Positions 3,000 to 62,104 of a DNA stretch of 64,000 bases are shown in pieces. A model generated the notes under the pieces. It was not told the DNA's origin. It searched no databases and was given only the letters and a program-made list of their open reading frames with translations. Source of the DNA: a virus (lineage: Duplodnaviria > Heunggongvirae > Uroviricota > Caudoviricetes). A program made the translations under genes and the position numbers. Location of the stretch: the IMG/VR virus record IMGVR_UViG_2675903313_000009; one strand, written 5' to 3'. Every line of letters starts with the position of its first letter. Within the stretch, counting starts at the first letter, position 1.

Positions 3000-3780
3000 C
3001 ACATCCTTAAATATCAATAAGTTATAGTTGTTTATACAATCAAGAAAACAACTGAATAACAGATCAACGAAACATCAACGCTTTCACCCGATTTGGTCTA
3101 AAAAATTGACGTTTTCACACATCACTTCTTATACCCGTAACTCTACGCAGCAGACAGCGCCACAGCGTCCAATTTTCACCACAGACGACCCAACACACTA
3201 CCAATAAAAACACACGCTCAAAATCGCTCCCGTTGCGTTACACAACCATATAAACAACTTATTTTCAGGCATAACAAAACAACTAAATAACACAAATGCC
3301 ATTCCCAAAAACAACCAACCTCTTTATGGCAGGCTACCGAAAAGACCCACCTCTTCTCCCCAGGCTACCGGACAACCAACCTAACTTTCACAGGCAATCC
3401 GAAAACATTCATACGCGCGATACCCACGACACGCCATTACCCAAACAGCGAAGAAACACCAGAATCACTGAAACCCCAACGAAGCCTGTAACCGCAAGGT
3501 TTCTCTCAATCCCAAAAGACACGAAACATAACAATCACGGGAAACGCCATTACCCAATACACGAATAACTACAAAAGCCTTTCACACACTCCAGACAAAC
3601 AACTCAAACACAATAACGAAAGGAATCGCCCACCTGCCATTACTCCATACACGGAGAAGAACAATCACCAAAACGACGAGAACACCCCATAGAAGAACCA
3701 CCGCAAAACGAACGAAACCACAGACACCGACAGAGAAAACAACACACCCAATTCACCAACAGAAATAGTCGCCGTATAGA
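3000..3780 (+). other. CA-rich, G- and T-poor non-coding tract (candidate long non-coding transcript)
   Basis: About 780 bp with strong A+C excess on + strand; only a low-complexity ORF without RBS; internal degenerate repeats (caaccaacct..ggctaccg). Confidence 0.4.
3106..3134 (+). promoter_or_regulatory. Candidate sigma70-type promoter reading into the CA-rich tract
   Basis: TTGACG, 17-nt spacer, TTATAC. Confidence 0.35.
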
Positions 3781-3892
3781 ACGTTCTGGAAGGAGTGAGC
3801 ATTAACGCCTATAGAGAGGTTGAGACAGATAAAACACGAAGAAAACACAACATGTATAGCGAACAAGACAGGTATGTATAAGTGGGGAGGGA

Positions 3893-7255: not shown

Positions 7256-7660
7256 GTGTAGAAAAAACATCGGGAAGCTGGTGGAATCCAACCAGCGGTT
7301 GTCGGACAGGTGAGCGGGGAAAATTATGATGACTTTCGTCACCTGAGACATCCAGATTTCTTTCGTGGCATAATCACATACGTGATTAAGTGGTGTGATT
7401 ATGTGAAAAATCACGCGCACATAATACGCGAGCGGATACAGAACAAAACAAAATGCCGATCCGCACCGACAAATAAACGCGGATCACATAGCAAGACTAA
7501 AAGCCAATGATTAACCATACTCTATAGCGCAATATAACGCGTTTTAAGCGCGTTAATGTGTTAAGTAATGGGCATGTACTGGTAAGGATATAAAAGCGCG
7601 TCTATGGCGTTATTTTGGCGCTTATTTTTATGTTGTTGGAGTGAGTTAAAGACAATAAAA

Positions 7661-7680
7661 ACGCGCCATCATTGGCGCGT
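7661..7680. promoter_or_regulatory. GC-core palindrome acgcgcca..tggcgcgt
   Basis: 20-bp inverted repeat in AT-rich intergenic region. Confidence 0.3.
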
Positions 7681-7707
7681 TATGGTGGGAGTATTGGAAA
7701 CGAAAAA

Positions 7708-7726
7708 AGCGCCCATAGTGGGCGCT
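7708..7726 (-). terminator. 19-bp palindrome agcgcccatagtgggcgct with flanking A/T runs (copy 1); likely bidirectional terminator
   Basis: Perfect inverted repeat directly downstream of minus-strand gene 7732..7962. Confidence 0.55.
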
Positions 7727-7731
7727 CGATT

Positions 7732-7962
7732 TTATTTGTGTAAACTGATTTTAAATCCCATTTCTACAAACGCTTTTAGCATTAAAAATATATCAGCGTC
7801 GTTCACGTCTGCTTTTTTTCGCTCCTGGTCGCTCAATAAGTCAATTTTGTGCGTCGTTTCATCTATAAGCTCGACTGCGCGCCCAGCGTAACCAGCGATC
7901 CCAGCGATGCGATTAACATAATATTCATTATGGACGTTAACGCCAGCGATAAGAACAAACAT
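7732..7962 (-). CDS. Hypothetical small protein
   Basis: 76-aa ORF in AT-rich minus-strand block. Confidence 0.4.
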   Translation of the reverse strand: MFVLIAGVNVHNEYYVNRIAGIAGYAGRAVELIDETTHKIDLLSDQERKKADVNDADIFLMLKAFVEMGFKISLHK

Positions 7963-8235: not shown

Positions 8236-8895
8236 TTACGCTTTGAAAGCATCAGCTAAATAATTGTAGAAATCATTTTTAATGAAGCGATATTGCTGAG
8301 TACCAGCTTTCGCGCTCCCAGCTCCTTTGACTTTTTCAACAAGTCCAAGACGTTCGCAAAGATTGATCAACTGGTTGGCTTGAGTATAGCCAGCGTCCAA
8401 TTTAATTTCACACGCTTTTTTAGCTTCATTCATTAAATCGAAAACAGCGCCATTGGTGAACGTGTCGATCTCGTCGTTAATCATATCGATTAAAGCGAAT
8501 ACACGAGATCCTGACATATCAGCGATGGAATAAACGCATTTACCAGATTTAATTGATTTAACCAGATAAACCAGTTTTTCCAGAGAATAACTATTAGTCA
8601 TTGCATCACGGAAAAATACTTCTGGCGCTTGTTTGCTTGCTTTAATCGCATAGTAGAAAACAGAGCATAATTTTTCGTCTTCTACAGCGTTTACAACGTT
8701 GTTGATGAAGTAAGCAAGTTTCGTGGTCGCAGCTTGCATATTTGCTTTGTCTGTTTTAGTGTGCGTACCATTTTTATAATGTTCGTTATATGTTTGAGTC
8801 GCCAGATCTGCTTTTTCGCGCAGCTCGTCGGATACAATAGATGCAGCTTCAATGATGGACTTTTTAGAAATGATAACGTTAGCCATGATGGACAT
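8236..8895 (-). CDS. Hypothetical protein
   Basis: 219-aa ORF, AT-rich. Confidence 0.55.
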   Translation of the reverse strand: MSIMANVIISKKSIIEAASIVSDELREKADLATQTYNEHYKNGTHTKTDKANMQAATTKLAYFINNVVNAVEDEKLCSVFYYAIKASKQAPEVFFRDAMTNSYSLEKLVYLVKSIKSGKCVYSIADMSGSRVFALIDMINDEIDTFTNGAVFDLMNEAKKACEIKLDAGYTQANQLINLCERLGLVEKVKGAGSAKAGTQQYRFIKNDFYNYLADAFKA

Positions 8896-9140
8896 CCTTA
8901 CGAAAAATTAAAATGAATTTATTTTTTACTGTCGTTAGCTAGCTCGCTTTCGACGAGTTCAATTATCGATACGTGAAAAAAGATTGCAAGTATTTTTTTT
9001 AAATTTTTTGCAGGGATGAAAGCCCTAGAAATAAAAGCGAGATCGTCGAAGGTGTTCCCTAAATAAATAATCAATTCGGGCCTTTAACCTTATATATTTA
9101 TACAGAGTGGCATTGAAAGAGTTTTAAATGAATGGCATGT

Positions 9141-9168
9141 AAAATAATAACCGGGCTTAGCCGGTTAT
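9141..9168 (-). terminator. Rho-independent terminator (minus strand) after 9182..9706
   Basis: Stem aaccgg/ccggtt followed by T-run on minus strand. Confidence 0.65.
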
Positions 9169-9181
9169 TACCCTTATAGAT

Positions 9182-9706
9182 TTAAAATGGAAGGATTCGT
9201 TCAACCCAATCGAAGAAAACAAGTATTTTTCTGCCGTCTTCTAACTTAAGAGTGACCTGGCAAGCATCAACGCCTCTTGACACCCCTTCAATTTCACGAC
9301 CGTCTGCCATGTAGACCCTTATAGATTGGTCGTTTTGATAAGCCTTGCGACATATCGCAAAAAAGTCACGGCGTGATGGCTGATTGTCAACATAGTCTGG
9401 ATGTATTGTTAGCCTACCTTTGAACTCGCGAGCAATGCCATCGATTACACCTGATTCAATTGTGCTAATGCGCTCAAGTGGGAGTCTTATACGATTTTCT
9501 TTATCATATGGAAGCGGGCATAAATCTAGCTTATTGCGGGAAGGCATTGTCCCCTGAACGTACATGCAAAACACCTGACCGTCTTCAAGCGTGACTCTTA
9601 CAGGAATGTTGTTCTTCCGCCAGAACATAAGTATGTTTTCAGCATGTTCGTAGTCTCGCGGCCAGACTTCAGCCGGTATGCCGTAGGTGATGTCCAATGT
9701 TCTCAT
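9182..9706 (-). CDS. Hypothetical protein
   Basis: 174-aa ORF; overlaps upstream gene by 4 nt. Confidence 0.5.
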   Translation of the reverse strand: MRTLDITYGIPAEVWPRDYEHAENILMFWRKNNIPVRVTLEDGQVFCMYVQGTMPSRNKLDLCPLPYDKENRIRLPLERISTIESGVIDGIAREFKGRLTIHPDYVDNQPSRRDFFAICRKAYQNDQSIRVYMADGREIEGVSRGVDACQVTLKLEDGRKILVFFDWVERILPF

Positions 9707-10317
9707 TCTGATACTCTTAGAGGTGTTTTCAGCAACCCAAATTTAAATTCTTTGTTACCAACGACAAAGAAGGGAACCTCAACATAGATTTTTTTATCGA
9801 CGGATTTAGAGTTAGCTGTTTTCTGTATGTCACGAACGATACGTTTTGAGATATTTTCATCGATAAACAATACCTTTCCACTTGTATTCCCTTCAGCCTT
9901 GGCGTAAGTAACGATAGGCTCTTCATTGCCAACCCTAATGTTTACTTGGCAACCTGTTGTAGCCATTTCATCACAGTAAAGTGTGCCGTCTTGAACTTCT
10001 AAAACAATTCCAGATGGCTTCATGGCTTCGTCAGAGTTTACATTAACGTTTTCTGGTACAGCGGTCCCGTTAATTTGCAACCGTAATCTTTCTTTTCCTC
10101 CATTAAGTATTGTTTCTTCTGCGTTGTCTGAGAATCTGAACCAAACTGGCTGATTCAGACCTCGTGATTTGTATTCTACTACGTCTTCGGAGGTAAACAT
10201 GCTGTACGTTTTTTGCATGTCAGAGACGAAATCTGATAATGCGTTGGCGGAAAACGCCGGGAGGCATATACAAGCAAGGAGTAACGAAATTTTCATTTTC
10301 ATATCATGATAATCCAA
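9703..10317 (-). CDS. Predicted secreted protein (N-terminal signal peptide)
   Basis: N-terminus MKMKISLLLACICLPAFSANA; true start probably a few codons inside the ORF. Confidence 0.55.
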   Translation of the reverse strand: MDYHDMKMKISLLLACICLPAFSANALSDFVSDMQKTYSMFTSEDVVEYKSRGLNQPVWFRFSDNAEETILNGGKERLRLQINGTAVPENVNVNSDEAMKPSGIVLEVQDGTLYCDEMATTGCQVNIRVGNEEPIVTYAKAEGNTSGKVLFIDENISKRIVRDIQKTANSKSVDKKIYVEVPFFVVGNKEFKFGLLKTPLRVSE

Positions 10318-10806
10318 TTATTTAACATCACACTTTCTAAGTTTTTCTATTTGTTCTAATTTTTCATGATCATCATTTAGATTTCCTTCGACTATCTCCG
10401 TTTCAAGTTTGCTGATTAGCATGTTAAGTGCGTTGTAGTTATTGCATTTTACTTTGTAGGCGTAGTATGACCTTGTCCCTGGTTTTTGTACACCCATATC
10501 ATTAAAGTTAGAGCTTAAAGTATAACCTTCAAGTTCAACCCCTTTTATTGTTGGAAGAATTATATTTAATGGTTCTAATTTAAATGGGTAGATATAAATA
10601 TGTGATATGAAGTACTCTTCTGAAGAGATTTTCTTCATGTCTTTTGTGATTGAAGCTGAATATTTACGGTTCCGAGTGATATAAAATTTTGTGCATTTGT
10701 ACAACTCTAGGTTGAATAGATAATATTTATCTTTAAAAAGAACATCTTTTCCATGTGATATTTTATGTCGTAAAGAGTTAATTATTTTGTTTATGGAAAT
10801 ACTCAT
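10318..10806 (-). CDS. Hypothetical protein, Lys-rich
   Basis: 162-aa ORF abutting downstream gene; low GC. Confidence 0.5.
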   Translation of the reverse strand: MSISINKIINSLRHKISHGKDVLFKDKYYLFNLELYKCTKFYITRNRKYSASITKDMKKISSEEYFISHIYIYPFKLEPLNIILPTIKGVELEGYTLSSNFNDMGVQKPGTRSYYAYKVKCNNYNALNMLISKLETEIVEGNLNDDHEKLEQIEKLRKCDVK

Positions 10807-10951
10807 CTACAGTATCCGACCTTAGTTATCAATTGAAAAGCCTACAAATATCGTTCTGCCAATCAAGAAATTTTTTCAGCCGGAGGTGTGTGCTTCAAAA
10901 AATGTGATGAATATCACATGCAGGTGCTCTCATACACCTGCATGTAGACTA

Positions 10952-11551
10952 TTAATCATTCAATAATCTATATTTTCTTTTGATTAAATCTTCACCTTTT
11001 TTGGTGAACACAAAACCAAATTGCGATTTTTTGTTCAGCCTAAGTACTCTGTTATCCAACGCATCGGTTGATGGAATCAATGTTTGATCATCTATCCAAT
11101 TAAGTAGCGTAAGAAAGTTCAGCAGCCTCAACGTTGTTGTGCGAAGCTCTTTCGATATATTTTCAATGCTGGCAATTCGTCTTTCTTTTTTCTCAGGTGG
11201 TACAGATAATTGTTCTTGAGGTTTCGTGGATAGATAATCAATTTCGTTTGCTGCATCGAATGATATGTGTGGCGTAATTTTGCTAAAAAAGCCTTTCGCT
11301 GACTCACTTGATAATAAACCAGACCTATTCATATCGTTTGTTATTCTGTACAGGAGTGGACTGTGTTTCATTTCAGGATAACGTTGATAAAAGTTAAGCA
11401 ATTCAAAAGCAGCATTAGCGCCAACAAGAAAATCAGAAGGATCGCTGACTTTCCAGAAAGAATGATTTTTCTTAGCGCCAGTGGTGTCAACAAATGATAA
11501 TTCTTTTAACCAACTCATGATGTGCTCCTTTCTAACAAGTGAGCACATCAT
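10952..11551 (-). CDS. Hypothetical protein
   Basis: 199-aa ORF, low GC. Confidence 0.5.
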   Translation of the reverse strand: MMCSLVRKEHIMSWLKELSFVDTTGAKKNHSFWKVSDPSDFLVGANAAFELLNFYQRYPEMKHSPLLYRITNDMNRSGLLSSESAKGFFSKITPHISFDAANEIDYLSTKPQEQLSVPPEKKERRIASIENISKELRTTTLRLLNFLTLLNWIDDQTLIPSTDALDNRVLRLNKKSQFGFVFTKKGEDLIKRKYRLLND

Positions 11552-11583
11552 AGAATTAGTAGATAGGGGGTAAATATGAAATG

Positions 11584-11862
11584 TTACGGCAACCTGCTCA
11601 GTATTTCCTCTAGATCTTTTTTTGTCATATTGGAGTTCTCATAGATGCGCATGATTTTCTCACGCGTCTTAGCGGAAACCCCAACGGCAGATGTGACTTT
11701 GTCAAATTCAGCCATAGTCATCGTCTCCAGAATGGCATTGATAACTTCAGCCTTAGACATCTTGATTTTTTTCTCTTTGAGTTTTATTTGAAATTTTCCA
11801 AGTTTTTCATTGGCTTTATCAGACAATGCCACTTGGCAATAAGTTGTTTTTTTTTCGCTCAT
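11584..11862 (-). CDS. Hypothetical small protein
   Basis: 92-aa ORF overlapping helicase stop. Confidence 0.45.
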   Translation of the reverse strand: MSEKKTTYCQVALSDKANEKLGKFQIKLKEKKIKMSKAEVINAILETMTMAEFDKVTSAVGVSAKTREKIMRIYENSNMTKKDLEEILSRLP

Positions 11863-11864
11863 AA

Positions 11865-13424
11865 CTAATCTCGTTTCAGAACTCCAAAATCGAATGTGCC
11901 ATCAATTGGCAATACACCTTCTGCAAAGCCAGGTGTGGTGTCGATGATGTGTTTTCGCTCATAAGAGTGAGACAACAGGTATTTGTTGCTAATGTCAATG
12001 AAATCAGTGATAAAACACACGTTTGCCTGATTTTTTTTTGCTCGTAAGCCACGACCGACACGCTGTCTCATTTCAACTTCTGCTTTCCCACCACCAGCAA
12101 GAATGACCGCGCCCACGCTTGGCACATCAACACCGACATCCAGAATAGTCGAGCCTATTAAAACATCTATTTCGCCAGACGCTAAACTGTTCAGCTTTGC
12201 TTGCCTTGTCGCCTGGTTCGATTCCCCATAAATGAAGTCAACTCTAAGGCCGGACTCCTTCATCATCTCCATCAGGATTTGCCCGTGGCGTTTAAGACGA
12301 ACCAGAGTCATACAATTGAGAGAATGTTGCTTATAGAGCAATGCTTCGCGCACAATGGCCTCGTTACGTCCCAAATTATACACGATCCCCAACTGATAAG
12401 CCTTTTGGTAGGCAGTGCTCATACCAACTCTAAAATTGAGGTGTTTGTTGGCAAGTTCGGCCTTGATTCTGGCCTCGTCTGGCTTGTAGGCAACTTTATG
12501 ATAAAGGAAGTACGGCTTTGCCAGAATGCCTCGATCAATCAGGTACTTTTCTGTGACTTTAATTTCAATTCGCCCGGCCACCGCCATCAGGCGCATGTTG
12601 GCTTCCGTCGAATCCTTCATGAACGGCGTGGCTGTAAGCGCCAGACGATAGTCTGCGTTCACACATAATCTGGCAATGTCATAGAAATTAGAGCCTGAAG
12701 ACTCATGCGCTTCTTCCAGAATAAGCAGAGACACACTTGAAAGGAAGCGTTTCACTAGCTCCCGACGTTTGAGGTGGTAGCTCTTTTTATCTGGTGTTGC
12801 ATCGCGTGGTGGTTCTTCAAGGAAACTTGCCAGAGTTTGAACTGTAGCGACGTTGATATGTCGTGATACCTGGAACTCACCCGAGCCAATGACTCCAACC
12901 TTTTGGCCCTTTAACCACGGTTCGCCATTTTCGGCGCGGTAGTCGATGGATCTCTGGAAGTTTTCGGCCATTTGAAACATCAGAACAGAGCGGGTTGTTA
13001 AAAATAATGTCATTCGACCGATACGTGCAGCTGCTTTGCAGGCAACATTAGATTTCCCGCCACCAGTAGCGATCTGCGCAATCATCATTCCCTCTCGAAC
13101 CAGTGTTTCCACAGTCTGATCCTGATACGCATAATCAGGATTGTATGGGAATGGGTTAACCGCTGGATTTGGTTTTCCAAGCGCCGGGGCTTTGTCTTTG
13201 CGGATATGAACACATTTGATGCCCGCCTTGTTCAAGTTCGCCGCTACAGGCTTGGCAAAGCCAGCAGGGAACGAGTTTTTACTCCAGTTGAACATTGTGC
13301 TTGTGCCCTTCCAGTCGCCAGTCTCGACTTCGTAGCTCAACATCTGTTGCACCATTTGCTTTACCTTGTCATCTGCGCCAGAAATAAGCGCATTAACTGC
13401 GTTAGATACAATCCGAACAGTCAT
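11865..13424 (-). CDS. Superfamily-2 (DEAD/DEAH-like) helicase
   Basis: Walker A ATGGGKS, DEAH-like LILEEAH, motif III LTATP. Confidence 0.8.
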   Translation of the reverse strand: MTVRIVSNAVNALISGADDKVKQMVQQMLSYEVETGDWKGTSTMFNWSKNSFPAGFAKPVAANLNKAGIKCVHIRKDKAPALGKPNPAVNPFPYNPDYAYQDQTVETLVREGMMIAQIATGGGKSNVACKAAARIGRMTLFLTTRSVLMFQMAENFQRSIDYRAENGEPWLKGQKVGVIGSGEFQVSRHINVATVQTLASFLEEPPRDATPDKKSYHLKRRELVKRFLSSVSLLILEEAHESSGSNFYDIARLCVNADYRLALTATPFMKDSTEANMRLMAVAGRIEIKVTEKYLIDRGILAKPYFLYHKVAYKPDEARIKAELANKHLNFRVGMSTAYQKAYQLGIVYNLGRNEAIVREALLYKQHSLNCMTLVRLKRHGQILMEMMKESGLRVDFIYGESNQATRQAKLNSLASGEIDVLIGSTILDVGVDVPSVGAVILAGGGKAEVEMRQRVGRGLRAKKNQANVCFITDFIDISNKYLLSHSYERKHIIDTTPGFAEGVLPIDGTFDFGVLKRD

Positions 13425-13470
13425 AAACCTCTTTCCTTAGTGCCTTTTGTATGTTATTTGGCTATTATAA

Positions 13471-13489
13471 TAAGTAAGTGATTACTTAG
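13471..13489. promoter_or_regulatory. Palindromic TAAGTA..TACTTA motif copy in divergent promoter region
   Basis: taagtaagtgattacttag. Confidence 0.4.
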
Positions 13490-14187
13490 TGGATTGTAGC
13501 AATAAAATGGATGTAAAAATCACGATTTTGCAGGTTGATGTTGCCAACCTTCGCCCGAATACCTGGAACACCAATTCGGTTGGTGCGCAGAATTTTGAAA
13601 AACTGAAAGGTTCTATCGAAAAATTGGGCTTTTTTAAGCCAATTTTGGCTCGTGAACTTGAAGATGGATTTTTTGAAATCCTCGGCGGCGAACATCGCTG
13701 GCGTGCTGCTATTGAGCAAGGAATTTCAACGGTTCCAGTGCTTTCTGTGGGCAAAATTAGCGATGTCGTAGCTAAACAGATGTCACTGGTGGACAACGAG
13801 CGATACGGTGAAGACGACCAAATCGCATTGCAACGCTTCATTGAAGAAATTCAGTCAGAACTTGACTATCAACTGTCTGAAATCGCCCCGTATGACGACG
13901 AAATCTCGATGGTTTTAGCAAAAGAGGCGGCAATCGACCTTGAAGCACTGGAGGCGTTGTCTCGTGGTAGTGATGAGCCTGTCGATACCGACAAACGAGA
14001 GAAAACCGAACGTGTGGGTGCGGAACATCAGACCATGCGCTTCAAAGTAACTTTCGATGCGTCAGATCGTGTTGCAGAAACCATAAAAAACATCATCAAA
14101 GAGCAGGATATTAACACCGGTAATGAAATGGAGAACGCTGGTGAGGCTCTGGTGTGGCTGGTCGACTACTACAAGGAGCGTATGTAA
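13489..14187 (+). CDS. ParB N-terminal-domain (ParB/Srx-like) protein
   Basis: GGEHRWRAA resembles ParB box II; start codon uncertain (GTG 13489 or ATG 13507). Confidence 0.7.
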   Translation: MDCSNKMDVKITILQVDVANLRPNTWNTNSVGAQNFEKLKGSIEKLGFFKPILARELEDGFFEILGGEHRWRAAIEQGISTVPVLSVGKISDVVAKQMSLVDNERYGEDDQIALQRFIEEIQSELDYQLSEIAPYDDEISMVLAKEAAIDLEALEALSRGSDEPVDTDKREKTERVGAEHQTMRFKVTFDASDRVAETIKNIIKEQDINTGNEMENAGEALVWLVDYYKERM

Positions 14188-14855
14188 TGACCAAAAAGTT
14201 TGAAATCGTATATCGCGACCCGGCAGATCTTATTCCCTATGAGATGAATGCCAAAAAGCATGATGAACAGCAGATCCGAGATCTAGCCGCAGCCATTAAA
14301 AAGCGCGGATTTGACCAGCCAATTACGGTCGATAAGAACGACGTAATTATTACTGGCCACGGCCGCCGTGAGGCTGCAATTTTTGCTGGACTTGAGCGCG
14401 TACCGGTTATTGTTCGCGATGATCTTAGTGATGACGAGGTTCGTGCGAAGCGCCTTGAAGATAACCGACTTGCCAGCATTGATTACGATGCAATTAAGCT
14501 ACAGAAAGAGCTTGAGTCGCTTGTTCTGGACGATATCGAGGTTTTCGGCTTTGAAGAGCGTGAGTTGAATGTTCTCGTTGGCAGCATGACAGAAGAAATG
14601 GACACCGACTCGCTAGTTATCGATCTTGGCGAAGAAACTAAACGACAGAAGGATGAACACACCGAGATCAGTCGTGAAGTTGCAGCGGAAGAAGTACGTG
14701 TTGTCGACGTATTGGGCTTTAAAACGCTTCCTGCTGGCTCTGCCATTGTTGTTGGTGATTTGCTTGCCCACATGGAAGAAATGACGGGAGAAAGCGGGGT
14801 AGACGCATTTGTGGCATATGCGGAGAAGATCTCTTCCGGGGAGATGGCTGCATGA
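14187..14855 (+). CDS. Second ParB N-terminal-domain protein
   Basis: GHGRREAA motif; start overlaps upstream stop (TAATG). Confidence 0.7.
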   Translation: MTKKFEIVYRDPADLIPYEMNAKKHDEQQIRDLAAAIKKRGFDQPITVDKNDVIITGHGRREAAIFAGLERVPVIVRDDLSDDEVRAKRLEDNRLASIDYDAIKLQKELESLVLDDIEVFGFEERELNVLVGSMTEEMDTDSLVIDLGEETKRQKDEHTEISREVAAEEVRVVDVLGFKTLPAGSAIVVGDLLAHMEEMTGESGVDAFVAYAEKISSGEMAA

Positions 14856-15517
14856 GCAAATACATCATCAACGTATCGTTTCAGACACGCGTAAATAAAA
14901 CCACGCGCACGTTGGAAATCGCTGAGTCGTTCGGGCTTGGCCTGGACGAAAAAGAGTGGACGCTTTACGACAATCTGGAGCTGGATGTGAAGCAGGGCGA
15001 TGTGGTGTACATCACCGGCCAATCCGGTTCCGGCAAATCCGTTGTGCTGCGCGAGTTGCAACGACAGATGAAGGATGAAGGGCTGTCTGTAGCCTCCATC
15101 GATGATTTTACCTTCGATAATGAGGTTAACGTCATCGATCAGTTGGGCAAAACGACCAGTGATGCGCTTGGGTTGTTATCTATGGCTGGTCTGAACGATG
15201 CATATCTGTTTGTTCGCAAGCCTTCTGAAATGTCAGACGGCCAGAAATATCGTCTCAAGATTGCCAAACTGATTGAGTCAGGCGCTAAAGTATGGGCTGC
15301 TGACGAGTTCGGCGCTGTTCTCGACCGTGTAACCGCTCAGGTTGTGGCGTCTAACCTCCAGCGTGCCGCTCGAAAGGTTGGTGCGACGGTAATGGTGGCG
15401 ACGACTCACGAAGACCTGAAGAACGCGCTGCGCCCGGATATGCAGATCACCAAGCACTACAAAGAACGCGTGAAGGTGGAATATCACAATGGTAGTCATG
15501 ATGAGGTCCATTCATGA
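14852..15517 (+). CDS. Stand-alone ABC-type ATPase
   Basis: Walker A GQSGSGKS, signature-like SDGQ, Walker B AADEFGAVLD, H-loop ATTHE. Confidence 0.7.
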   Translation: MSKYIINVSFQTRVNKTTRTLEIAESFGLGLDEKEWTLYDNLELDVKQGDVVYITGQSGSGKSVVLRELQRQMKDEGLSVASIDDFTFDNEVNVIDQLGKTTSDALGLLSMAGLNDAYLFVRKPSEMSDGQKYRLKIAKLIESGAKVWAADEFGAVLDRVTAQVVASNLQRAARKVGATVMVATTHEDLKNALRPDMQITKHYKERVKVEYHNGSHDEVHS

Positions 15518-16404
15518 CGGACATCATCATTAAACGCTACCGCCCTGAAGAGTTTCCGCGTCATCTGGACTTTCTGGAGCGAATGACTGTTACAAAGGGA
15601 ACTGTAGAGGACTGGCACGCTCTTAAGTCGCTTCACTACAAAACAGACGGCAAACCTTTCGCGCCAACTTACTATCGCTGCGAACTTGATGACCGTCTGG
15701 TGGGCGTCGTGGTTATGGCTTACCCGAAACTACTGTTGGCACCTCGCCACCGCATGTTTCCTAAGTTGAAACCAACCACTAATACCACCGTGGCTAACCA
15801 GTACTGGGGTCGGTACGTGAATAACAACTTTGCGGTGATCAGTCGCTCAGTTGTGGATACTCAGTATCGTGGCGTAGGCGTCTCTTATCGAATGATTAAC
15901 CTGGTTAGCAGGATGCATGACCGGCCAATCATTGAGATCCAGTCCTCGATGAGCAAATACAATCCCTTCGCCATGAAAGCAGGGTTTAAGTTCATCCGCC
16001 CTGAGCGACCGAAGAGCTATGAAAGTGCACTGCGTGTATTCCAGCGCCATTTCCGTTCCGACCCTGGTGATAACGAGGCGATCGTCAAAGAGTTGTTCGC
16101 AATGAGCGAGTCTCGTCGTCGCCGTGCACTGCGTGATCTGGTGGCGGACTACCACAAGAACAGTTCCCTGGCAAAAGCTGGGCGGAATCGTGGCACGACG
16201 ATTCAGGACATTGCCGACAGTCTGGTGGACGAGGCCAGCATTGTGAAGCTGCTCAAGGACATTCACAACCTGAGCTTTACGTCTCCGTTGTATGGTGTGT
16301 ACCGAAACCCTGACTTTGGTCGTCGACTGCCTGACACGCTGCCACTGCTGGCATTCGACAAACAACCTTTGGATAAACCGTTAGAAATTGCTTTACCGGC
16401 ATAA
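15514..16404 (+). CDS. Hypothetical protein with possible GNAT acyltransferase core
   Basis: YRGVGVS resembles GNAT motif A (R-x-x-G-x-G/A); C-terminal 150 aa unassigned. Confidence 0.45.
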   Translation: MTDIIIKRYRPEEFPRHLDFLERMTVTKGTVEDWHALKSLHYKTDGKPFAPTYYRCELDDRLVGVVVMAYPKLLLAPRHRMFPKLKPTTNTTVANQYWGRYVNNNFAVISRSVVDTQYRGVGVSYRMINLVSRMHDRPIIEIQSSMSKYNPFAMKAGFKFIRPERPKSYESALRVFQRHFRSDPGDNEAIVKELFAMSESRRRRALRDLVADYHKNSSLAKAGRNRGTTIQDIADSLVDEASIVKLLKDIHNLSFTSPLYGVYRNPDFGRRLPDTLPLLAFDKQPLDKPLEIALPA

Positions 16405-16877: not shown

Positions 16878-17510
16878 ATGACGGTCGAAAAAGACGAGGT
16901 AAAAACTCGCCTGACACCAGCGGAGTGGGCCGAAGCTGAAGCCAAATGGACGTCAGGCGAATATACACTCTCAAAGCTGGAGGAAGAGTACGGCATTCGT
17001 CGTGAAACACTCTCCAGACATTTCAAAAAGCGAGGATTAGAGAAAGGCGCGGACTCTGTTGGGAAGATGGTTCGTGAGTCTCTTAAATCTGACGCAGAGC
17101 TTCGCGCTAAAGCCCGTGCGGAAAAGATAGAAGAACGTCGTACACGTTATGACGGCTGGGCGTATGCGTTGGGGCAGATGGTGATGGTCGAAGTCACTAC
17201 GGCCAAACGTGAGGGTAAGCCTTTAGGGGCGATTGAGGATTCTCTCAAGAGCTTACAGAGAGCCAGTAATACTCTTGCAAAATGCTTTGAAGTTTCGTCC
17301 AAAGCATTGGGCATGGATCATGCGGAAAATGACGAGGAAGAAATTCCGAACCTGGTATTTGGTGAGCTTACGCCTTCCCAGGTGGCGAAATTACGTCAGG
17401 AAGACGACGAGCCTGAAATCATCGATGACGAATTGCTTGAGACGTTGGAAGAAGAAGCTCTAAGCGAATTTGATGCGACAGATGATGGAAGTGAAGGGGA
17501 GGACGAATAA
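16878..17510 (+). CDS. Putative terminase small subunit
   Basis: HTH-like N-terminus, acidic C-terminus; directly upstream of large terminase. Confidence 0.6.
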   Translation: MTVEKDEVKTRLTPAEWAEAEAKWTSGEYTLSKLEEEYGIRRETLSRHFKKRGLEKGADSVGKMVRESLKSDAELRAKARAEKIEERRTRYDGWAYALGQMVMVEVTTAKREGKPLGAIEDSLKSLQRASNTLAKCFEVSSKALGMDHAENDEEEIPNLVFGELTPSQVAKLRQEDDEPEIIDDELLETLEEEALSEFDATDDGSEGEDE

Positions 17511-18766
17511 TGGCAATCCCGTCCTCGCTCAGTCTTGTGCAACTGCATTCTGGACAGATGAAAGTCTTCCAGTCTCCGCATCGATTTAAAGTTGTTTGTG
17601 CTGGTCGACGCTGGGGAAAATCCCGGTTGTCGATCTCCACTATTATTCGTGCGGCGGCAAAGGAAAAAAAGCAAAGAGTCTGGTATGTCGCTCCTACTTA
17701 CCAGATGGCTCGCCAGATTTTGTGGGACGATCTACAGGAAGTTCTGCCTCGTAAGTGGGTTAGGAAAAAGAACGACACCACGATGACAATCGTGTTGAAG
17801 AACGGTTCGGAGATCGCCCTCAAAGGTGCTGATAAGCCTGACACTCTGCGCGGCGTAGCGTTGCATTTTGTAGTGCTTGATGAATTTCAGGATATGAAGG
17901 CTGACACCTGGTACAAGGTGTTACGACCTACTCTTTCATCGACACGCGGCGGTGCACTGATCATTGGTACGCCAAAAGGCTTCTCGGAATTTCACAAACT
18001 GTGGACTATAGGCCAGAACGTAGAGCTGCAAAGAAAGGGACAGTGGAAGAGCTGGCAGTTTGTAACTGCCGATTCTCCGTTTGTACCTACGGCGGAAATT
18101 GAAGCTGCTAAGAACGATATGGACCCGAAATCGTTCGCTCAGGAGTACCTGGCTAGCTTTGAGAACATGTCCGGGCGCGTTTACTACCCGTTCGATCGTA
18201 ACGTGCATGTAAAACCGCTTCAGTTCAACCCTCGGTTGCCTATATGGGTAGGGCAGGACTTCAACATTGACCCGATGTCTTCCGTAATTTTGCAACCTCA
18301 GCCAAATGGTGAGCTATGGGCAATTGATGAATTGGTGCTCTTTTCCTCTAACACGGCAGAGGTTTGTGATGAGCTTGAGAGACGCTTCTGGCGCTGGAAA
18401 TCACAGATAACGGTATTTCCAGATCCGGCAGGTGCTTATCGCCAACATGCTCGCGGGGAGTCTGACGTCGACATATTCAAAGAGAAGGGATTCTTACGTG
18501 TCGATTATTCGAAAAAGCACCCGCCAATTGCGGATCGTGTTAATGCTGTTAACCGAATGCTGATGACCGCATCTGGAGATATCCGGTTGTATATCGATCC
18601 GAAGTGCAAGCATTTGATTGATTCACTGGAAAAAGTCATCTACAAGCCTGGAACACGAGATATGGATAAGACAGGTGGCATTGAGCATAGTGCAGACGCA
18701 TTGGGCTATCCAGTACATCGTAGGTATCCAGTCAAAAACCGTGTTATTCTTGGTGGTTCTCGATAG
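17510..18766 (+). CDS. Terminase large subunit
   Basis: Walker A-like CAGRRWGKS; position before portal. Confidence 0.8.
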   Translation: MAIPSSLSLVQLHSGQMKVFQSPHRFKVVCAGRRWGKSRLSISTIIRAAAKEKKQRVWYVAPTYQMARQILWDDLQEVLPRKWVRKKNDTTMTIVLKNGSEIALKGADKPDTLRGVALHFVVLDEFQDMKADTWYKVLRPTLSSTRGGALIIGTPKGFSEFHKLWTIGQNVELQRKGQWKSWQFVTADSPFVPTAEIEAAKNDMDPKSFAQEYLASFENMSGRVYYPFDRNVHVKPLQFNPRLPIWVGQDFNIDPMSSVILQPQPNGELWAIDELVLFSSNTAEVCDELERRFWRWKSQITVFPDPAGAYRQHARGESDVDIFKEKGFLRVDYSKKHPPIADRVNAVNRMLMTASGDIRLYIDPKCKHLIDSLEKVIYKPGTRDMDKTGGIEHSADALGYPVHRRYPVKNRVILGGSR

Positions 18767-52877: not shown

Positions 52878-53993
52878 GTGAGCGAGCTGAAAGAGCTAAT
52901 TACCGAATTAGATTTTGAACAATGGTTGGACACTGAAGGTATCGTTTATCGACGTGGAGGCGTGAGTGCTCGCGGTCGTGAAGTGAATATCAAGGAGTGT
53001 CCGGTATGTGGCAGCTCCAACTGGAAGGTATATTTCAATCTGACCAGTGGCGTCGGCAAATGCTTTGCTGGTGATCATCCCGAAGAGATTCAGTTCAATA
53101 AGCTGATCTTCCTCAAGCACTACAGCGGTAAATCACGACGACAGTTCGAGGAATATGTGCAGAACGCGCTGATCTCACAAGGATGGGCGCCGAAGAAGGA
53201 AGAGGTCGTGCTGGCCAGCAAGGTTGAACTCGAAGGGCCAGTAGCTCTCCCTCGACATTACGAACTCCCCATTGACGGTCGTCTTCCTGATTATCTGGTG
53301 GAGCGCCATATCTCCCCGGATCTGGCCAAATACTTTGATCTGCGTTACTGCGTCGAAGGCAAGCACGCATACGTCGATCCGTACACAGACCAGGTCAAAG
53401 GGCAGGTGTTTGATATGCGCATCCTGATACCGGTTTACGATCTGGATGGCGTGATGAAGACCTTCCAGGGGCGTGACATTACCGGTGCAGCAGAACGTCG
53501 CTACCTCTTTCCTATGCAGCTTCCAGCTTCAGGTAGGTTTCTCTACAACGGCCATAATGCAGTCGGCAAACAGACTGTAGTTGTCTGTGAGGGGGCGTTC
53601 GATGTTATGGGGGTCAAACGAGCTATTTTTGACGAAGAAACATTACGTGATTACGTGGAACCAATAGGAACGTTCGGGATGCATCTATCTGGTAACACCA
53701 CTCAGGATGCAGAAGATCAGCTGGGCGCGTTCCTGACGCTCAAGGCGCGTGGGCTACGTAATGTGATTATGATGTGGGATAGTGAAAAGCAGGCTATACG
53801 CAACACTATGGCCGCAGCCAGGCGACTGAGCAGTATTGGTCTTAATGTGAAAATTGCATGTTTGGGCGAGGAAGGACTCGACCCCGGCGATGCGACCCCG
53901 GGGCAGATTATCAAAGCCTACTATTGCGCAAAACCTTACTCACGACAGCTTGAACTTTTAAGCAAGGTAAAAGGCATAGCTGCATTAGTTTGA
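52878..53993 (+). CDS. DNA primase (zinc-finger plus TOPRIM)
   Basis: CPVCGSS..CFAGDH zinc-binding motif; TOPRIM-like VVVCEGAFDVMG; start codon uncertain. Confidence 0.75.
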   Translation: MSELKELITELDFEQWLDTEGIVYRRGGVSARGREVNIKECPVCGSSNWKVYFNLTSGVGKCFAGDHPEEIQFNKLIFLKHYSGKSRRQFEEYVQNALISQGWAPKKEEVVLASKVELEGPVALPRHYELPIDGRLPDYLVERHISPDLAKYFDLRYCVEGKHAYVDPYTDQVKGQVFDMRILIPVYDLDGVMKTFQGRDITGAAERRYLFPMQLPASGRFLYNGHNAVGKQTVVVCEGAFDVMGVKRAIFDEETLRDYVEPIGTFGMHLSGNTTQDAEDQLGAFLTLKARGLRNVIMMWDSEKQAIRNTMAAARRLSSIGLNVKIACLGEEGLDPGDATPGQIIKAYYCAKPYSRQLELLSKVKGIAALV

Positions 53994-55130
53994 ACCAGTA
54001 TTAGTCACATACACATTGACCGAAAATGATTTAACTTCAGTATTGAAGTTGTCAGTCATTACCGCGAGGTAGGCATTTTTGGTATCTCTGAATTGCTTCA
54101 GGATGATTTGAACGTTATCTGTGCAAACAAACGAGGTAGCCAGATTGCCTCCTTTCTCTGAAAAATCCTTCAGGAATGTGCAGTCAACTTTGCCATCATT
54201 AGCGGTGAAGGTAGCATCATCACCCTGCCAGGTAAATGTAGCGTTAACGCCCTTATCAATGGATTTAGCAATAAGTCGCTGGGTGGCGGATTTTGTTTTG
54301 GCTTTGGAAGCCGGCGCTCGATATTTGCCGCTTTCTTTCAGTTCTGCAATGTAATCGCAGCCTCTTTTTTCTCCTTTATCGCAAGCAGTCTGATAAAGGT
54401 CGGCTGCTTTTTTATAGTCCTTTTTTACACCTTCCCCATTCTCATACATAATGCCAAGATTGGTTATGGCGTCGGCGTTTCCAAGTTCCGCTGCCTTTTT
54501 ATACCACTTAACTGCTTCTGCATCATTGCGTTTAACGCCTAACCCATCATCGTATAGTATTCCTAATCCTATCATAGCTTCTGAACTGCCTTGGTCTGCC
54601 GCCTTTTTGTAATAAGTAAAAGCCTTTTTATAATTCTTTTTAACGCCTTTACCATATTGGTAATACGCCCCAAGAACTGAAGTTGCTTTAACATACCCGG
54701 CATCAGAGGCTAGTTTGAAGTATTTAATGGCGAGTGCATGATCTACTTTACCAAGCAACCCCTTTTGATAAATAGCACCAAGATTGTTGTAGGCTCTACC
54801 TTCACGAGCATCCCCCGCAAGTTTGTAGTACTCAACAGCTTTATTTAGGTCTTTATCTACACCCTCGCCAAATGTGTACATAACCCCAAGTGCATAATAT
54901 GCTACTTTGTCTCCCTTTTCTGCAGCGAGATCAATCCACTTCTTGGCCTCAACTACATCCTTATCAAAACCATTGATACCATCAAAATAATTTGTCCCTA
55001 ACTCACTTTGTGCTGCGGTATCCCCTGCGGTAGCGGCTTCTATCAGCGTTTGTTTATTGTCTGCGTTAACGAATCCAGAGCTAAAAAGCAAAGTTAATGC
55101 CAGCAACGATGAAGATTTTATGTATTTCAT
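53985..55130 (-). CDS. Secreted Sel1-like repeat protein
   Basis: Signal peptide MKYIKSSSLLALTLLFSSGFVNA; about 7 Sel1-type repeats; C-terminal ~120 aa unassigned. Confidence 0.8.
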   Translation of the reverse strand: MKYIKSSSLLALTLLFSSGFVNADNKQTLIEAATAGDTAAQSELGTNYFDGINGFDKDVVEAKKWIDLAAEKGDKVAYYALGVMYTFGEGVDKDLNKAVEYYKLAGDAREGRAYNNLGAIYQKGLLGKVDHALAIKYFKLASDAGYVKATSVLGAYYQYGKGVKKNYKKAFTYYKKAADQGSSEAMIGLGILYDDGLGVKRNDAEAVKWYKKAAELGNADAITNLGIMYENGEGVKKDYKKAADLYQTACDKGEKRGCDYIAELKESGKYRAPASKAKTKSATQRLIAKSIDKGVNATFTWQGDDATFTANDGKVDCTFLKDFSEKGGNLATSFVCTDNVQIILKQFRDTKNAYLAVMTDNFNTEVKSFSVNVYVTNTGSN

Positions 55131-55363
55131 ATTTTTTGTTCTGTTGATATAGGATGAACAGTTTAGACGCGGCAAGCGTCAAGTGTGCGAAAAAGGGTAC
55201 TTAAATTTAGTTAATATGTCAGCTTTGTTGATTTAGTTTATGGTCGGTAAAGTTACTAGGAAACTAATAACCATAAGAAATAGTACGCCATTTAATTATT
55301 GTGGCACTGCTCGTGTTTTGATTAACTAATACCTGCGATAAATATAAATAAAGGGAAGCCAAC

Positions 55364-60125: not shown

Positions 60126-60200
60126 GATGGTGTAGCTCAGCGGTAGAGCAGTTGGCTGTTAACCAACTGGTCGGTGGTTCGAATCCACCCACCATCGCCA
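60126..60200 (+). tRNA. tRNA-Asn (anticodon GUU)
   Basis: Cloverleaf folds by hand; anticodon loop CUGUUAA; CCA encoded; not the E. coli Asn tRNA sequence. Confidence 0.85.
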
Positions 60201-60205
60201 ATTTA

Positions 60206-60292
60206 GGGGAGTTAGTCCGTAGAGGTAGCGGTGTAGACTGTAAATCTACTGTCATGGCGACTCGGGTGGTTCGACTCCATCACTCCCCACCA
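60206..60292 (+). tRNA. tRNA-Tyr (anticodon GUA), long variable arm
   Basis: Anticodon arm gtaga-CUGUAAA-tctac; acceptor ggggagt/actcccc; CCA encoded. Confidence 0.75.
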
Positions 60293-60296
60293 AATT

Positions 60297-60372
60297 GCCG
60301 GTTTAGCTCAGTTGGTAGAGCAGTCGCTTTGTAAGCGAATGGCCAGCGGTTCAAGTCCGTTAACCGGCACCA
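60297..60372 (+). tRNA. tRNA-Thr (anticodon UGU; assignment tentative)
   Basis: Acceptor gccggtt/aaccggc; anticodon loop UUUGUAA with one mismatch in stem. Confidence 0.65.
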
Positions 60373-60462
60373 ACACAACAGGTAAGAGCATTGGGCGAAT
60401 CGGCGATACTGACCCACAAGGCCGTAAATCGATAGAGTCAGACCAGTGCTCTTACCGTTGTG
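60373..60462 (+). other. Long stem-loop H2 directly after tRNA-Thr
   Basis: acacaacaggtaagagcattgg pairs with ccagtgctcttaccgttgtg. Confidence 0.45.
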
Positions 60463-60562
60463 ATGAATGCACAGGCTGATGTGCCGCAACTACAGTAGTG
60501 CGCGCTTTGCGGGGCTTGCTACAACCCTGTGTCGGAGTTCAGTACCGACCATCACAATAGCT

Positions 60563-60649
60563 GGAGAGTAGGGAGCATGGTGCTCAAGCGGTCTTGAAAA
60601 CCGTTCCATTGTGCAAACGATGATGGTTCGATTCCATTACTCTCCGCCA
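60563..60649 (+). tRNA. tRNA-Ser (anticodon UGA), long variable arm
   Basis: Acceptor ggagagt/actctcc; anticodon loop CUUGAAA; CCA encoded. Confidence 0.8.
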
Positions 60650-60841: not shown

Positions 60842-62104
60842 TTACTTTACATAGTCGCCCAGTTTTAATATTTCGCGCTTATATTCTTTAACCATGCTAC
60901 TGGATTCAGTATAAATTCGATTTAAAAGATTATCGCTATCTTTATTCTCATTTATCTTAATGAGTGATAATTTAAATTCATAGTCATCAAATGCCACAAT
61001 CAAATGGTGGCCTGGGATTATATCTTCGTCACTCTTGAAGTATATATCTTCAAGTATGTAATCTAGTTGATTAGATTTTCTTTTCTCGATGTAATCTTCA
61101 GCCATAGCTATTACATCATTCCTGTCATTTAACCTGTTTTTTTCGGAAGGCACATCTTCGTAATGTTGCACGATTGAACAACCAATAAGGCGTGGGATGT
61201 AAACGTCAAAATGAGTAACTCTATCATTCGCGGTTTTAAGTTGTTCCTCAAAGTAGTTTCTTACATGTAAAGGCAACTTCTCAAAGTAATCATTAATTAT
61301 AGGAGAACAAGGAGTTTTATAATTCATAAGAACCGACGGTACGAGCTGTGGGCGTCGAAACATCCAGTCCCTTTTAACGTCCGATGGAACATAATAACTT
61401 TTAATGATATTATCAAAATAATTTATCATTCGAGATTTGAATATTTTATTGAATCTAAGGTTTATGAATGTATCCAGATAAGGCATATTTGAATAAGCAT
61501 CATCAAAAAATATTTCATCATTGAAAAAATCATATTTATTCAATAAACAACACAGTTTTTCCGAATTAATATGTTCACAATAATCGATTTTTAATCCAAA
61601 GATAGCAATGATCAACTTCATCTGAGGTGGGATTTTAAAAATTAATTGTGATACATACGCTCTTTTTTCCTTGAGACATTCCCCATCAATATAAAATGAA
61701 CTATCCACATACTCAAATATATTAATAATATGCTTCACATACTGTATTACCTCATGCTGTTTTACCAATGGGTAATAGAGTCTATGTAACTCATCGCTGT
61801 TTAAATTAATTTTGTGTTTATCGATAATTTGTTTTGCAAGAAGACATAACGCATCATGTTGATTTAATAAGGAATCAAACCATTGTTTAAATGCACTCTT
61901 TCGCATTTCGAACAATGATTCAGTTGTTAATTGAAGGGCTGAAAAAGCTGCTTTTGCACTTTTTCTCGCTTCGTAGGCATTCCATGCTGTTGCTATAAAA
62001 GCAAATGCTGTAGCCAATGTTCCAACAGTTTGACCATTTAAAACAACCCAATCCCAAAAAATAACGGTGAGCAGTAGTATAATAATGAAAATTAAAAAAG
62101 GCAT
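60842..62104 (-). CDS. AT-rich membrane-anchored protein of unknown function
   Basis: 420-aa minus-strand ORF; two N-terminal hydrophobic helices; GC far below neighbours; own terminator. Confidence 0.6.
   Translation of the reverse strand: MPFLIFIIILLLTVIFWDWVVLNGQTVGTLATAFAFIATAWNAYEARKSAKAAFSALQLTTESLFEMRKSAFKQWFDSLLNQHDALCLLAKQIIDKHKINLNSDELHRLYYPLVKQHEVIQYVKHIINIFEYVDSSFYIDGECLKEKRAYVSQLIFKIPPQMKLIIAIFGLKIDYCEHINSEKLCCLLNKYDFFNDEIFFDDAYSNMPYLDTFINLRFNKIFKSRMINYFDNIIKSYYVPSDVKRDWMFRRPQLVPSVLMNYKTPCSPIINDYFEKLPLHVRNYFEEQLKTANDRVTHFDVYIPRLIGCSIVQHYEDVPSEKNRLNDRNDVIAMAEDYIEKRKSNQLDYILEDIYFKSDEDIIPGHHLIVAFDDYEFKLSLIKINENKDSDNLLNRIYTESSSMVKEYKREILKLGDYVK

Follow-up and report, generated by a model that had tools for sequence, protein, structure and literature searches.

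What is the AT-rich, leftward-transcribed block of a tailed-phage-like element in which a superfamily 2 (SF2) helicase gene is followed by five small genes? The question is raised by positions 9141–13,424 of the viral record IMGVR_UViG_2675903313_000009 (the window below means the whole 64,000-nucleotide stretch that was analysed), where six minus-strand open reading frames (ORFs) of 519, 92, 199, 162, 204 and 174 amino acids (aa) lie at 9182–13,424. A sequence-only reading had seen in them a helicase with variable downstream cargo, an architecture known from defence or counter-defence modules. The comparisons reported here point to another answer, to which a probability of about 0.6 is assigned: the region is a conserved leftward block of an SSU5-supergroup phage-plasmid, interrupted by a single accessory-gene hot spot. 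The slot is an ordinary accessory-gene site of a known kind and no helicase-based defence system.

The window was identified as an SSU5-supergroup phage-plasmid by nucleotide identity and by shared backbone order. Over 8 kb around the region, its identity is 96.9% with Escherichia phage CMS-2020a and about 81% with Salmonella phage SSU5, the parts shared with the phage-plasmids Cyrano (pLF82) and PhiR41_1 are 96–98% identical, and E. coli plasmid p009_B, which carries the same slot allele, shows 99.6% identity to window positions 9000–11,900. That interval is matched by 501 PLSDB plasmids, in only 22 of them over its full length. The supergroup comprises SSU5, pHCM2, pMT1, pLF82/Cyrano and the pKpn group, all with the identical backbone order around the helicase; such elements, among them the Y. 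pestis plasmid pMT1 and the S. Typhi plasmid pHCM2, are common in clinical Enterobacteriaceae. A conserved phage core combined with variable accessory genes has been described for them (PMC7969092), while no description of the slot or of the slot alleles of the window was found in the literature searched.

The slot was compared in 20 elements, namely the window, Cyrano, SSU5, PhiR41_1 and pRM9975-1, nine plasmids (three from Klebsiella, two from E. coli and one each from Y. pestis, Enterobacter, S. Typhi and Shigella), five genome loci and one metagenomic contig. The loci were taken from species-representative genomes by a scan with strict patterns that returned six; one of these was pMT1 again and was left out, as was p009_B with its copy of the window's allele. 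The order helicase, orf92, slot, fljA, orf219 was observed in all elements except L025, a cut contig with only the slot, fljA and the next gene visible, and the backbone genes (helicase, orf92, fljA and orf219) were present in elements from E. coli, Shigella, Salmonella, Enterobacter, Kluyvera, Buttiauxella, Y. pestis and Klebsiella. By comparison, the complete backbone reads promoter, helicase, orf92, slot, fljA, terminator, orf219, orf82, orf76 and terminators (Table 1). Variation within the block is limited to one slot, which extends from the 3′ end of orf92 to the first codons of fljA; the comparison of this locus in related phages, which the earlier reading had proposed, thus did reveal cargo turnover, confined to that slot.

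Two layers make up the slot of the window: orf199, and a cassette of 1143 bp with orf162 and the exported orf204. The cassette is swapped for unrelated DNA in elements whose flanks are 96–98% identical. Homology to Cyrano, PhiR41_1 and pRM9975-1 stops at 9694/9695 and resumes at 10,837/10,838, in the spacer between orf199 and orf162, and homology to SSU5 resumes only at about 11,611/11,612. The left junction lies 12 nucleotides (nt) inside the 5′ end of fljA, at the same place in every allele compared, with the first 3–6 fljA codons being allele-specific. No direct or inverted repeats flanking the cassette were found, hence there is no sign of site-specific insertion, and the exchange would have taken place by homologous recombination between the flanks, which are conserved. 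In the set of 5426 complete E. coli genomes, on which all prevalence counts for this species are based, the complete cassette is present in 35 and orf204 alone in another 46, in every case on plasmids. With its junctions known exactly, the slot is a well-delimited place in which to look for genes of lysogenic conversion or exclusion, and engineered inserts could naturally be put there.

At least one exported protein was encoded in the slot of 18 of the 20 elements, and the slot was empty in the remaining two. These proteins belong to at least five families, whose carriers are listed in the last rows of Table 1. Pairs of the exported families that were tested proved unrelated, including orf204 against the 266-aa and the 208-aa proteins, except for a distant similarity of the 117-aa protein to the N-terminal part of the 266-aa lipoprotein. 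The cargo genes also assort independently of one another, as some elements have orf204 but not orf162, and others have orf199 with neither of the two.

Table 1. Positions in the window of the features of the leftward block, followed by the exported-protein families found in the slot of the compared elements.
Feature	Position	Strand	Basis or carriers
Conserved predicted promoter/operator region 5′ of helicase	13464..13501	-	Near-invariant across E. coli, Salmonella, Y. pestis and Klebsiella elements
SF2 helicase, 519 aa, XPB/Rad25/UvsW-like, backbone gene	11865..13424	-	ResIII, DEAD, Helicase_C
orf92, small conserved backbone protein	11584..11862	-	phrog_1466
orf199, AT-rich accessory gene, older cargo layer, true product 188 aa	10952..11518	-	Strong ribosome-binding site at M12 start; phrog_13473
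Perfect 12-bp stem-loop just 3′ of orf199	10913..10949	-	-23.3 kcal/mol, z -4.85; within the cassette's conserved flank
Replaceable cassette, 1143 bp, orf162 + orf204	9695..10837	.	blastn breakpoints against Cyrano, PhiR41_1, pRM9975-1 and SSU5; GC 34.9%
orf162, orphan cytoplasmic protein, most AT-rich gene of the window	10318..10806	-	GC 29.2%, rank 1/67
orf204, predicted Sec-exported periplasmic beta-sandwich protein, true product 199 aa	9703..10302	-	Signal peptide at 10240-10302
fljA, FljA-family protein, 174 aa, predicted RNA-binding post-transcriptional repressor, backbone gene	9182..9706	-	PF03614, E 5.4e-81
Terminator-like hairpin after fljA	9141..9174	-	-15.5 kcal/mol, z -3.4, then UUUUA
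orf219, conserved backbone gene	8236..8895	-	phrog_1513
orf82, small conserved gene, true product 67 aa	7984..8187	-	phrog_6145 match from residue 16; ribosome-binding site at M16 start
orf76, last gene of the leftward block	7732..7962	-	phrog_1585; good ribosome-binding site
Two tandem intrinsic terminators closing the block	7707-7727 and 7660-7681	-	Terminator scan; -15.5 and -14.8 kcal/mol, U-run after each
Slot content: DUF2846-like lipoprotein			SSU5, pHCM2, pMT1, Enterobacter, Kluyvera, Buttiauxella, E. coli WEM25; inverted in one Klebsiella element
Slot content: orf204 family			Window, Shigella, E. coli YPE3, L023
Slot content: 117-118-aa secreted protein			PhiR41_1, Klebsiella 480738
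Slot content: 266-aa lipoprotein		opposite	Cyrano, PhiR41_1, pRM9975-1
Slot content: 208-aa secreted protein			L025

Base composition also sets part of the slot apart. The helicase gene has a GC content of 47.3% against a window mean of 45.8%, in line with the phage-like composition ascribed to it earlier, with 38.0% for orf92, 35.6–36.0% for orf199, 39.3% for orf204 and 44.8% for the 174-aa fljA gene. Ranked by GC content at third codon positions (GC3) among 67 genes, orf162 (z-score −2.6) comes first, orf199 (−2.1; GC3 31%) third and orf204 (−1.3) seventh, the last deviating less than the other two, while orf92 (rank 26) and fljA (rank 19) are no outliers and orf92 is low in overall GC only. 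The view that all five downstream genes are AT-richer therefore holds for orf162 and orf199 and to a lesser degree for orf204, and not for orf92 and fljA; the later acquisition drawn from it stands in the same way for the cassette and orf199 but not for orf92 and the fljA-like gene, which are backbone across the SSU5 supergroup. Replacement at one position in near-identical genomes and deviating composition (ranks 1, 3 and 7) are two of the marks expected of a hot spot, and both were found here.

The helicase itself carries ResIII/DEAD matches at residues 99–270 and a Helicase_C match at 364–462, that is, the two RecA-like domains of an SF2 enzyme, and its motifs GGGKS, EEAH, TATP and QRVGRGLR are intact when read from the translation. 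It falls into the DNA helicase family phrog_16 (E 7e-94), and its best PDB matches are XPBII, Rad25, RecG and UvsW. XPB/Rad25 and T4 UvsW have the same two domains and motifs, but the core alone aligns with them (E 1e-8 to 1e-12) and the N-terminal 98 residues or so are unmatched; the annotators of Cyrano named the gene UvsW helicase (Cyrano record). Copies were detected in 234 of the 5426 E. coli genomes, every one on a plasmid and none in a chromosome.

In a module for defence or counter-defence, the helicase would be the conserved motor or sensor, and the downstream genes would supply interchangeable effectors. AT-rich and rapidly exchanged genes that follow an SF2 helicase immediately and on its own strand are what such a module would look like, and PADLOC gave the helicase partial matches to a type IV restriction enzyme, DpdF, DruE and PbeA (E 1e-22). 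These matches, however, cover the generic SF2 core only, the partner genes of those systems are absent, and the eight neighbours of the helicase gave no PADLOC match other than a chance-level one to SspC (E 0.007). The helicase is moreover a backbone gene, with protein identities of 91–93% between the E. coli, Salmonella (SSU5) and Klebsiella lineages at saturated synonymous divergence (dS), and it does not co-vary with the cargo: its DNA is about 97% identical beside differing cargoes, it is present where the slot is empty, and the 234 genomes with the helicase compare with the 35 that have the full cassette. Between it and the cassette lie the conserved orf92 and a strong hairpin, and the cargo genes assort independently of one another. 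A helicase-centred defence module was thus not borne out and is considered very unlikely. The known systems Pbe, Dpd, Druantia and type I, III and IV restriction were tried as assignments and rejected, with neither a full-length helicase match nor partner genes being found.

Expression data for the locus come from strain LF82 carrying Cyrano. In LB, the orf92 homologue CYRAN_117 lies 12-fold above the prophage background (PMC9928086 Table 1) and the helicase homologue about 4.8-fold above it (PMC9928086). The slot lipoprotein CYRAN_115 reaches a log2 value of 4.8 in LB and 9.2 in Dulbecco's modified Eagle medium (DMEM) and macrophages, and the fljA-like gene 4.2 in LB and 7–8 in DMEM and macrophages, with low expression of the orf199 homologue (PMC9928086). 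Expression of the orf219 homologue hardly leaves the floor in either LB or DMEM but reaches about log2 5.6, a modest rise, at 6 h in macrophages, CYRAN_112, the homologue of orf76, is at the floor in LB with a slight rise in other conditions (PMC9928086), and the divergent ParB-like genes and ATPase upstream of the helicase are at or near the floor in LB, ParB also in DMEM (PMC9928086 Table 1 and S1 Table). A close relative that has another slot allele hence expresses the slot and fljA while in the plasmid state, and the pattern as a whole suggests at least three separately controlled units.

The cargo genes of the window have few relatives. The clusters found among 5.8 billion proteins numbered 10 for orf199, 14 for orf204 and 3 for orf162, the last with 2 representatives among 1.84 billion, and the members of the orf199 and orf204 clusters that lie on informative contigs occur on enterobacterial ones of about 100 kb. 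The starts of orf199 and orf204 were judged from ribosome-binding sites and homologues. For orf204, the signal peptide MKMKISLLLACICLPAFSANA|LSD was recognised by reading as an n-h-c arrangement (MKMK / ISLLLACICLPAF / SANA|LSD) with an AxA site; homologues start at MKMK and conserve the FSANA|LSD cleavage region and two invariant cysteines of the mature part, so that the signal peptide named for one product of the block stands. Cleavage by signal peptidase I is expected, because the cysteine of a possible lipobox is not conserved. The best structural neighbour is the IalB protein 3dtd, with 116 residues aligned; the IalB (invasion-associated locus B) proteins are periplasmic beta-sandwich proteins and, like orf204, exported. 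A fold search in BFVD returned uncharacterised phage proteins only, at template modelling (TM) scores of about 0.4. The gene orf199 is absent from SSU5, pHCM2 and pMT1.

Distant relatives of orf162 (164–199 aa), which share the motif PF...G...LSSNF, occupy the same slot in other elements, and all members of the family lie in the slot and always beside an exported-protein gene, in four subtypes (window, PhiR41_1, Klebsiella pneumoniae 480738 and L025). The AlphaFold2 model of orf162 was unreliable (predicted local distance difference test, pLDDT, 48) and was not used for fold searches. A PBECR3 nuclease match of one family member (E 0.017) was dismissed as chance, as it was not reproduced in the other five members. 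RefSeq calls orf162 as a product of 106 aa, yet the N-terminal 56 residues are conserved in homologues of 57–81% identity, so the shorter call is an annotation artefact.

In a second explanation, the slot genes would form a superinfection-exclusion or anti-phage system independent of the helicase, with the exported protein blocking a receptor or DNA entry and the orf162 and orf199 families assisting or regulating it. Exclusion proteins that are exported, such as Llp of T5, Cor of phi80/N15 and Imm/Sp of T4, are often encoded by temperate phages. The exported proteins in 18 of 20 slots, the adjacency of all four orf162 subtypes to such a gene, the strong expression of the Cyrano slot lipoprotein in lysogens, and the recurrence of an orf199-like, orf162-like and secreted trio in a Klebsiella element (42%, 33–51% and 61% identity, respectively) agree with this. 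Against it, the exported partners are mutually unrelated, orf204 stands alone in the 46 E. coli genomes and in Shigella, and PADLOC gave no match. An exclusion system of this kind is therefore judged unlikely, though it keeps a real chance.

Selection on the cargo bears on whether it has any function. All genes showed signs of purifying selection, with ratios of nonsynonymous to synonymous substitution rates (dN/dS) of 0.07–0.30 overall, 0.09–0.30 for the cargo genes and 0.09–0.19 for orf199. Decaying or selfish hitch-hiking DNA could account for the extreme AT content, the orphan status, the weak ribosome-binding sites and the truncated RefSeq call of orf162; but the ORFs are intact in homologues of 48–81% identity, with motifs and cysteine pairs kept, and since the cargo genes are under purifying selection they are not junk, which leaves functionless DNA extremely improbable. 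The AT-rich genes are ordinary orphan accessory genes pending a phenotype.

The 174-aa gene downstream of the slot had been counted among the genes without assignment, and this could not be upheld. Its product matches the FljA family PF03614 over its full length, at 270.9 bits against a cut-off of 24, with residues 5–171 aligned to model positions 1–170 of 170, and it shares 34% identity over 171 aa (E 4e-34) with canonical Salmonella FljA. For the latter, two overlapping fragments of Salmonella type, L018 and L017, were joined into one query, and in one of them a flagellin gene lies immediately upstream. Both are short unverified "phage" records (S.Kent 1-2-1 and ECO95 1-6-1) with pieces of a Salmonella-type fljB-fljA locus, and are probably bacterial chromosomal fragments rather than phage genomes. 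Remote-homology and structure searches were otherwise unproductive for the small genes: orf92, orf199, orf162, orf204, orf219, orf82 and orf76 belong to PHROG families of unknown function only and have no Pfam, NCBIfam or PADLOC match, Pfam searches of the small genes at E up to 10 and NCBIfam searches returned nothing, and PDB sequence and profile searches gave nothing for orf92, orf199, orf162 (two profiles) and orf204.

The fljA-like gene was detected in 831 PLSDB plasmids, at a coverage of at least 80% in 822, with 341 of the plasmids from Klebsiella and 62 from Yersinia. Where dS could be estimated, dN/dS was 0.10–0.16 for most pairs, including Klebsiella against Y. pestis, and about 0.3 for two pairs. 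The more interesting point of the locus is this universally conserved gene: it belongs to a family of RNA-binding translational repressors, purifying selection maintains it even where the host has no flagella, and lysogens of a relative express it under host-like conditions. Compared with the Salmonella fljBA operon, the window likewise has a full-length FljA-family gene directly downstream of an exported-protein gene; it differs in that no flagellin gene is present, that the gene is a core phage-plasmid gene conserved in non-flagellate hosts, and that the identity is 34% only. The E. coli flk/fln islands and plasmid pBSSB1 carry other fljA-like genes that are grouped with Salmonella fljBA. 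As to architecture, Pfam Hfq matched residues 123–165 of the FljA-like protein (E 0.0012), hhalign against a small Hfq alignment gave a probability of 4.8% for residues 24–55 in the N-terminal half, and the two halves did not align to each other; the faint similarity of each half is to the helix and Sm1 portion of Hfq, which is at best a suggestive hint of a putative tandem Sm-like architecture of the FljA family.

An exported protein paired with an FljA-like repressor could be a conversion module that silences the flagellum, with translational repression of host fliC, as known from Salmonella phase variation, leaving lysogens without flagella and conferring resistance to flagellotropic phages or evasion of TLR5. 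The fliC leader of E. coli K-12 is nearly the same as that of Salmonella, and the full-length family match, the position directly after an exported-protein gene, which mirrors fljB-fljA as in L018, and the expression of fljA in LF82 lysogens under host-like conditions all fit this proposal. The intact gene under purifying selection in plasmids of Klebsiella and Yersinia, hosts without flagella, does not. In the window, no flagellin N-domain was detected by tblastn at E ≤ 10, the gene upstream of fljA being orf204, and the best match to the E. coli fliC leader was 12 nt long and at chance level (E 0.28); no open-access paper tying fljA to these elements was found. The known carriers LF82, O104:H4 and S. 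Typhi with pHCM2 are flagellate and H-typed, so that strong constitutive repression of fliC is unlikely. Flagellar silencing as the purpose of the module is accordingly rated as rather improbable. Because the gene is kept in non-flagellate Klebsiella and Y. pestis hosts and known carriers are flagellate, host flagellin is unlikely to be the sole or a strongly repressed target, and the protein is better regarded as a putative RNA-binding translational repressor with a target possibly internal to the phage-plasmid.

A broader proposal would make the FljA-family repressor a core regulator of the SSU5 supergroup, nearly always placed behind an exchangeable exported-protein gene, in a generalised fljBA-like switch. 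If true, the element would install its own envelope protein and block translation of an mRNA of host or phage origin, that of flagellin where the host is motile and another one in Klebsiella and Y. pestis, and this would amount to a previously unrecognised post-transcriptional lysogenic conversion common to hundreds of clinical plasmids, pMT1 and pHCM2 included. This switch is doubtful, although worth keeping in mind.

The hot-spot reading can be set against known systems. Phage moron hot spots, such as those with bor and lom in lambda, Llp in T5, Cor in phi80/N15 and the defence genes of P2/P4, occupy a fixed position between conserved genes, as does the slot of the window, and they share with it unrelated and compositionally deviant cargo in near-identical genomes, frequent exported proteins and, as far as the positional equivalent in Cyrano is concerned, expression in lysogens. 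The window differs in that its cargo shows no homology to named proteins and includes no known defence gene. In the mechanism envisaged, the helicase would serve as a replication or recombination enzyme of the element, transcribed together with orf92 in the plasmid state, as seems to be the case in the close relative, and orf92 would be a small DNA-binding regulator. The slot genes would be accessory genes expressed in lysogeny ("morons"): orf204, exported by the Sec pathway to the periplasm and probably translationally coupled to fljA, would most likely alter the cell envelope, for example in superinfection exclusion or host interaction, and orf162 and orf199 would be cytoplasmic orphans under purifying selection. 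The FljA-like protein, by analogy with canonical FljA, would bind an mRNA leader and block its translation, its main target probably not being host flagellin alone.

Several points weigh against the hot-spot reading or its details. The functions of the cargo genes are predictions from their sequences, and the expression data stem from LF82 with Cyrano, whose flanks are 96–98% identical to the window but whose slot allele is different. The ribosome-binding sites of orf162 and orf204 are weak. The recurrence of the trio in E. coli and Klebsiella elements could mean that these genes work together as a system, and since many carriers are motile species, host fliC may yet be among the targets of the FljA-like protein.

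The hot spot lies within a block that is longer than was first supposed. In a greedy map of ORFs of at least 70 aa, plus-strand coding amounts to 48.3 kb and minus-strand coding to 7.9 kb, most of the latter being this block, which agrees with the earlier statement that the region is transcribed opposite to nearly everything else. The six ORFs and their strand were correctly described as well, but the block comprises nine genes, running from 13,424 to the terminators at 7707–7727 with three more genes beyond fljA, and it is probably not a single operon, given the hairpins after orf199 and after the 174-aa gene and the very unequal expression in Cyrano. The two tandem terminators are the first convincing intrinsic ones on the minus strand. 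The hairpin after fljA, read as a terminator, agrees with Cyrano, where fljA is expressed and the next gene is silent, and the stem-loop behind orf199, with a U-run only about 13 nt further on, may be a terminator or a stability element. A promoter consensus scan gave 15 sites against 15.5 expected, not above chance, and an Rfam search of the region returned no RNA family.

At the head of the block, the 64-bp divergent spacer between the helicase and the ParB-like genes is conserved across genera above the level of the flanking coding DNA, with an invariant TGnTACAAT. It contains an extended −10-like element TGCTACAAT (13,493–13,501), the dyad AAGTAA-TCAC-TTACTT (13,472–13,487) and TATAAT (13,464–13,469); in SSU5, pMT1 and the Klebsiella elements the dyad reads AAGTACTT. 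The segment at 13,464–13,501 has the look of a promoter–operator pair, for which orf92 would be an obvious candidate binder. This small protein was present in all elements sampled, at 33–85% identity and a dN/dS of 0.07, and its alignment read by eye has a strand-helix-turn-helix pattern, so a ribbon-helix-helix-like fold is possible; Pfam at E ≤ 10 and a PDB search with the profile of the orf92 family returned no match. The plus-strand genes at 13,489–16,404, which diverge from the helicase and immediately precede the large terminase gene (17,510–18,766), encode an ABC-type ATPase, a 296-aa protein and two proteins with a ParB N-terminal domain; their weak PADLOC matches (the N-terminal region of MTase_II, and mad3/mad8) look generic.

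At the other end, orf219 shows 83–84% amino-acid identity in the Buttiauxella, Kluyvera and Y. pestis elements, and orf82 is missing in Cyrano. The label "MIT family metal ion transporter" on the 67-aa orf82 homologue (PHROG 6145, SSU5 record) is implausible at that size and represents an annotation artefact. Among the sampled genomes, enterobacterial-type helicase, orf92 and fljA genes (with orf219 in L023) also occurred in L023 and L024, metagenome-assembled genomes labelled "Bacillota" and "Candidatus Fimivivens", a placement that is most likely a binning error.

Elsewhere in the window, about 800 nt at 3000–3800 (plus strand) form an apparently non-coding, extremely A+C-rich and G+T-poor stretch, with a GC skew down to −0.53 and an AT skew up to +0.63. 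Tandem Repeats Finder (TRF) detected no tandem repeats in it, and a degenerate motif near GCCATTACCCAA[A/T]ACA[C/G]CGAA was seen by eye three times; it may represent an origin, an iteron-like region or the template of a long non-coding transcript. A Sel1-repeat protein gene with six repeats (E 1e-54) lies on the minus strand at 53,985–55,175, within an otherwise plus-strand region. A second strongly AT-rich orphan gene, encoding 420 aa on the minus strand at 60,842–62,104 (GC 31.7%, GC3 rank 2 of 67, no Pfam or PADLOC match), is located just downstream of a cluster of four tRNA genes at 60,126–60,646.

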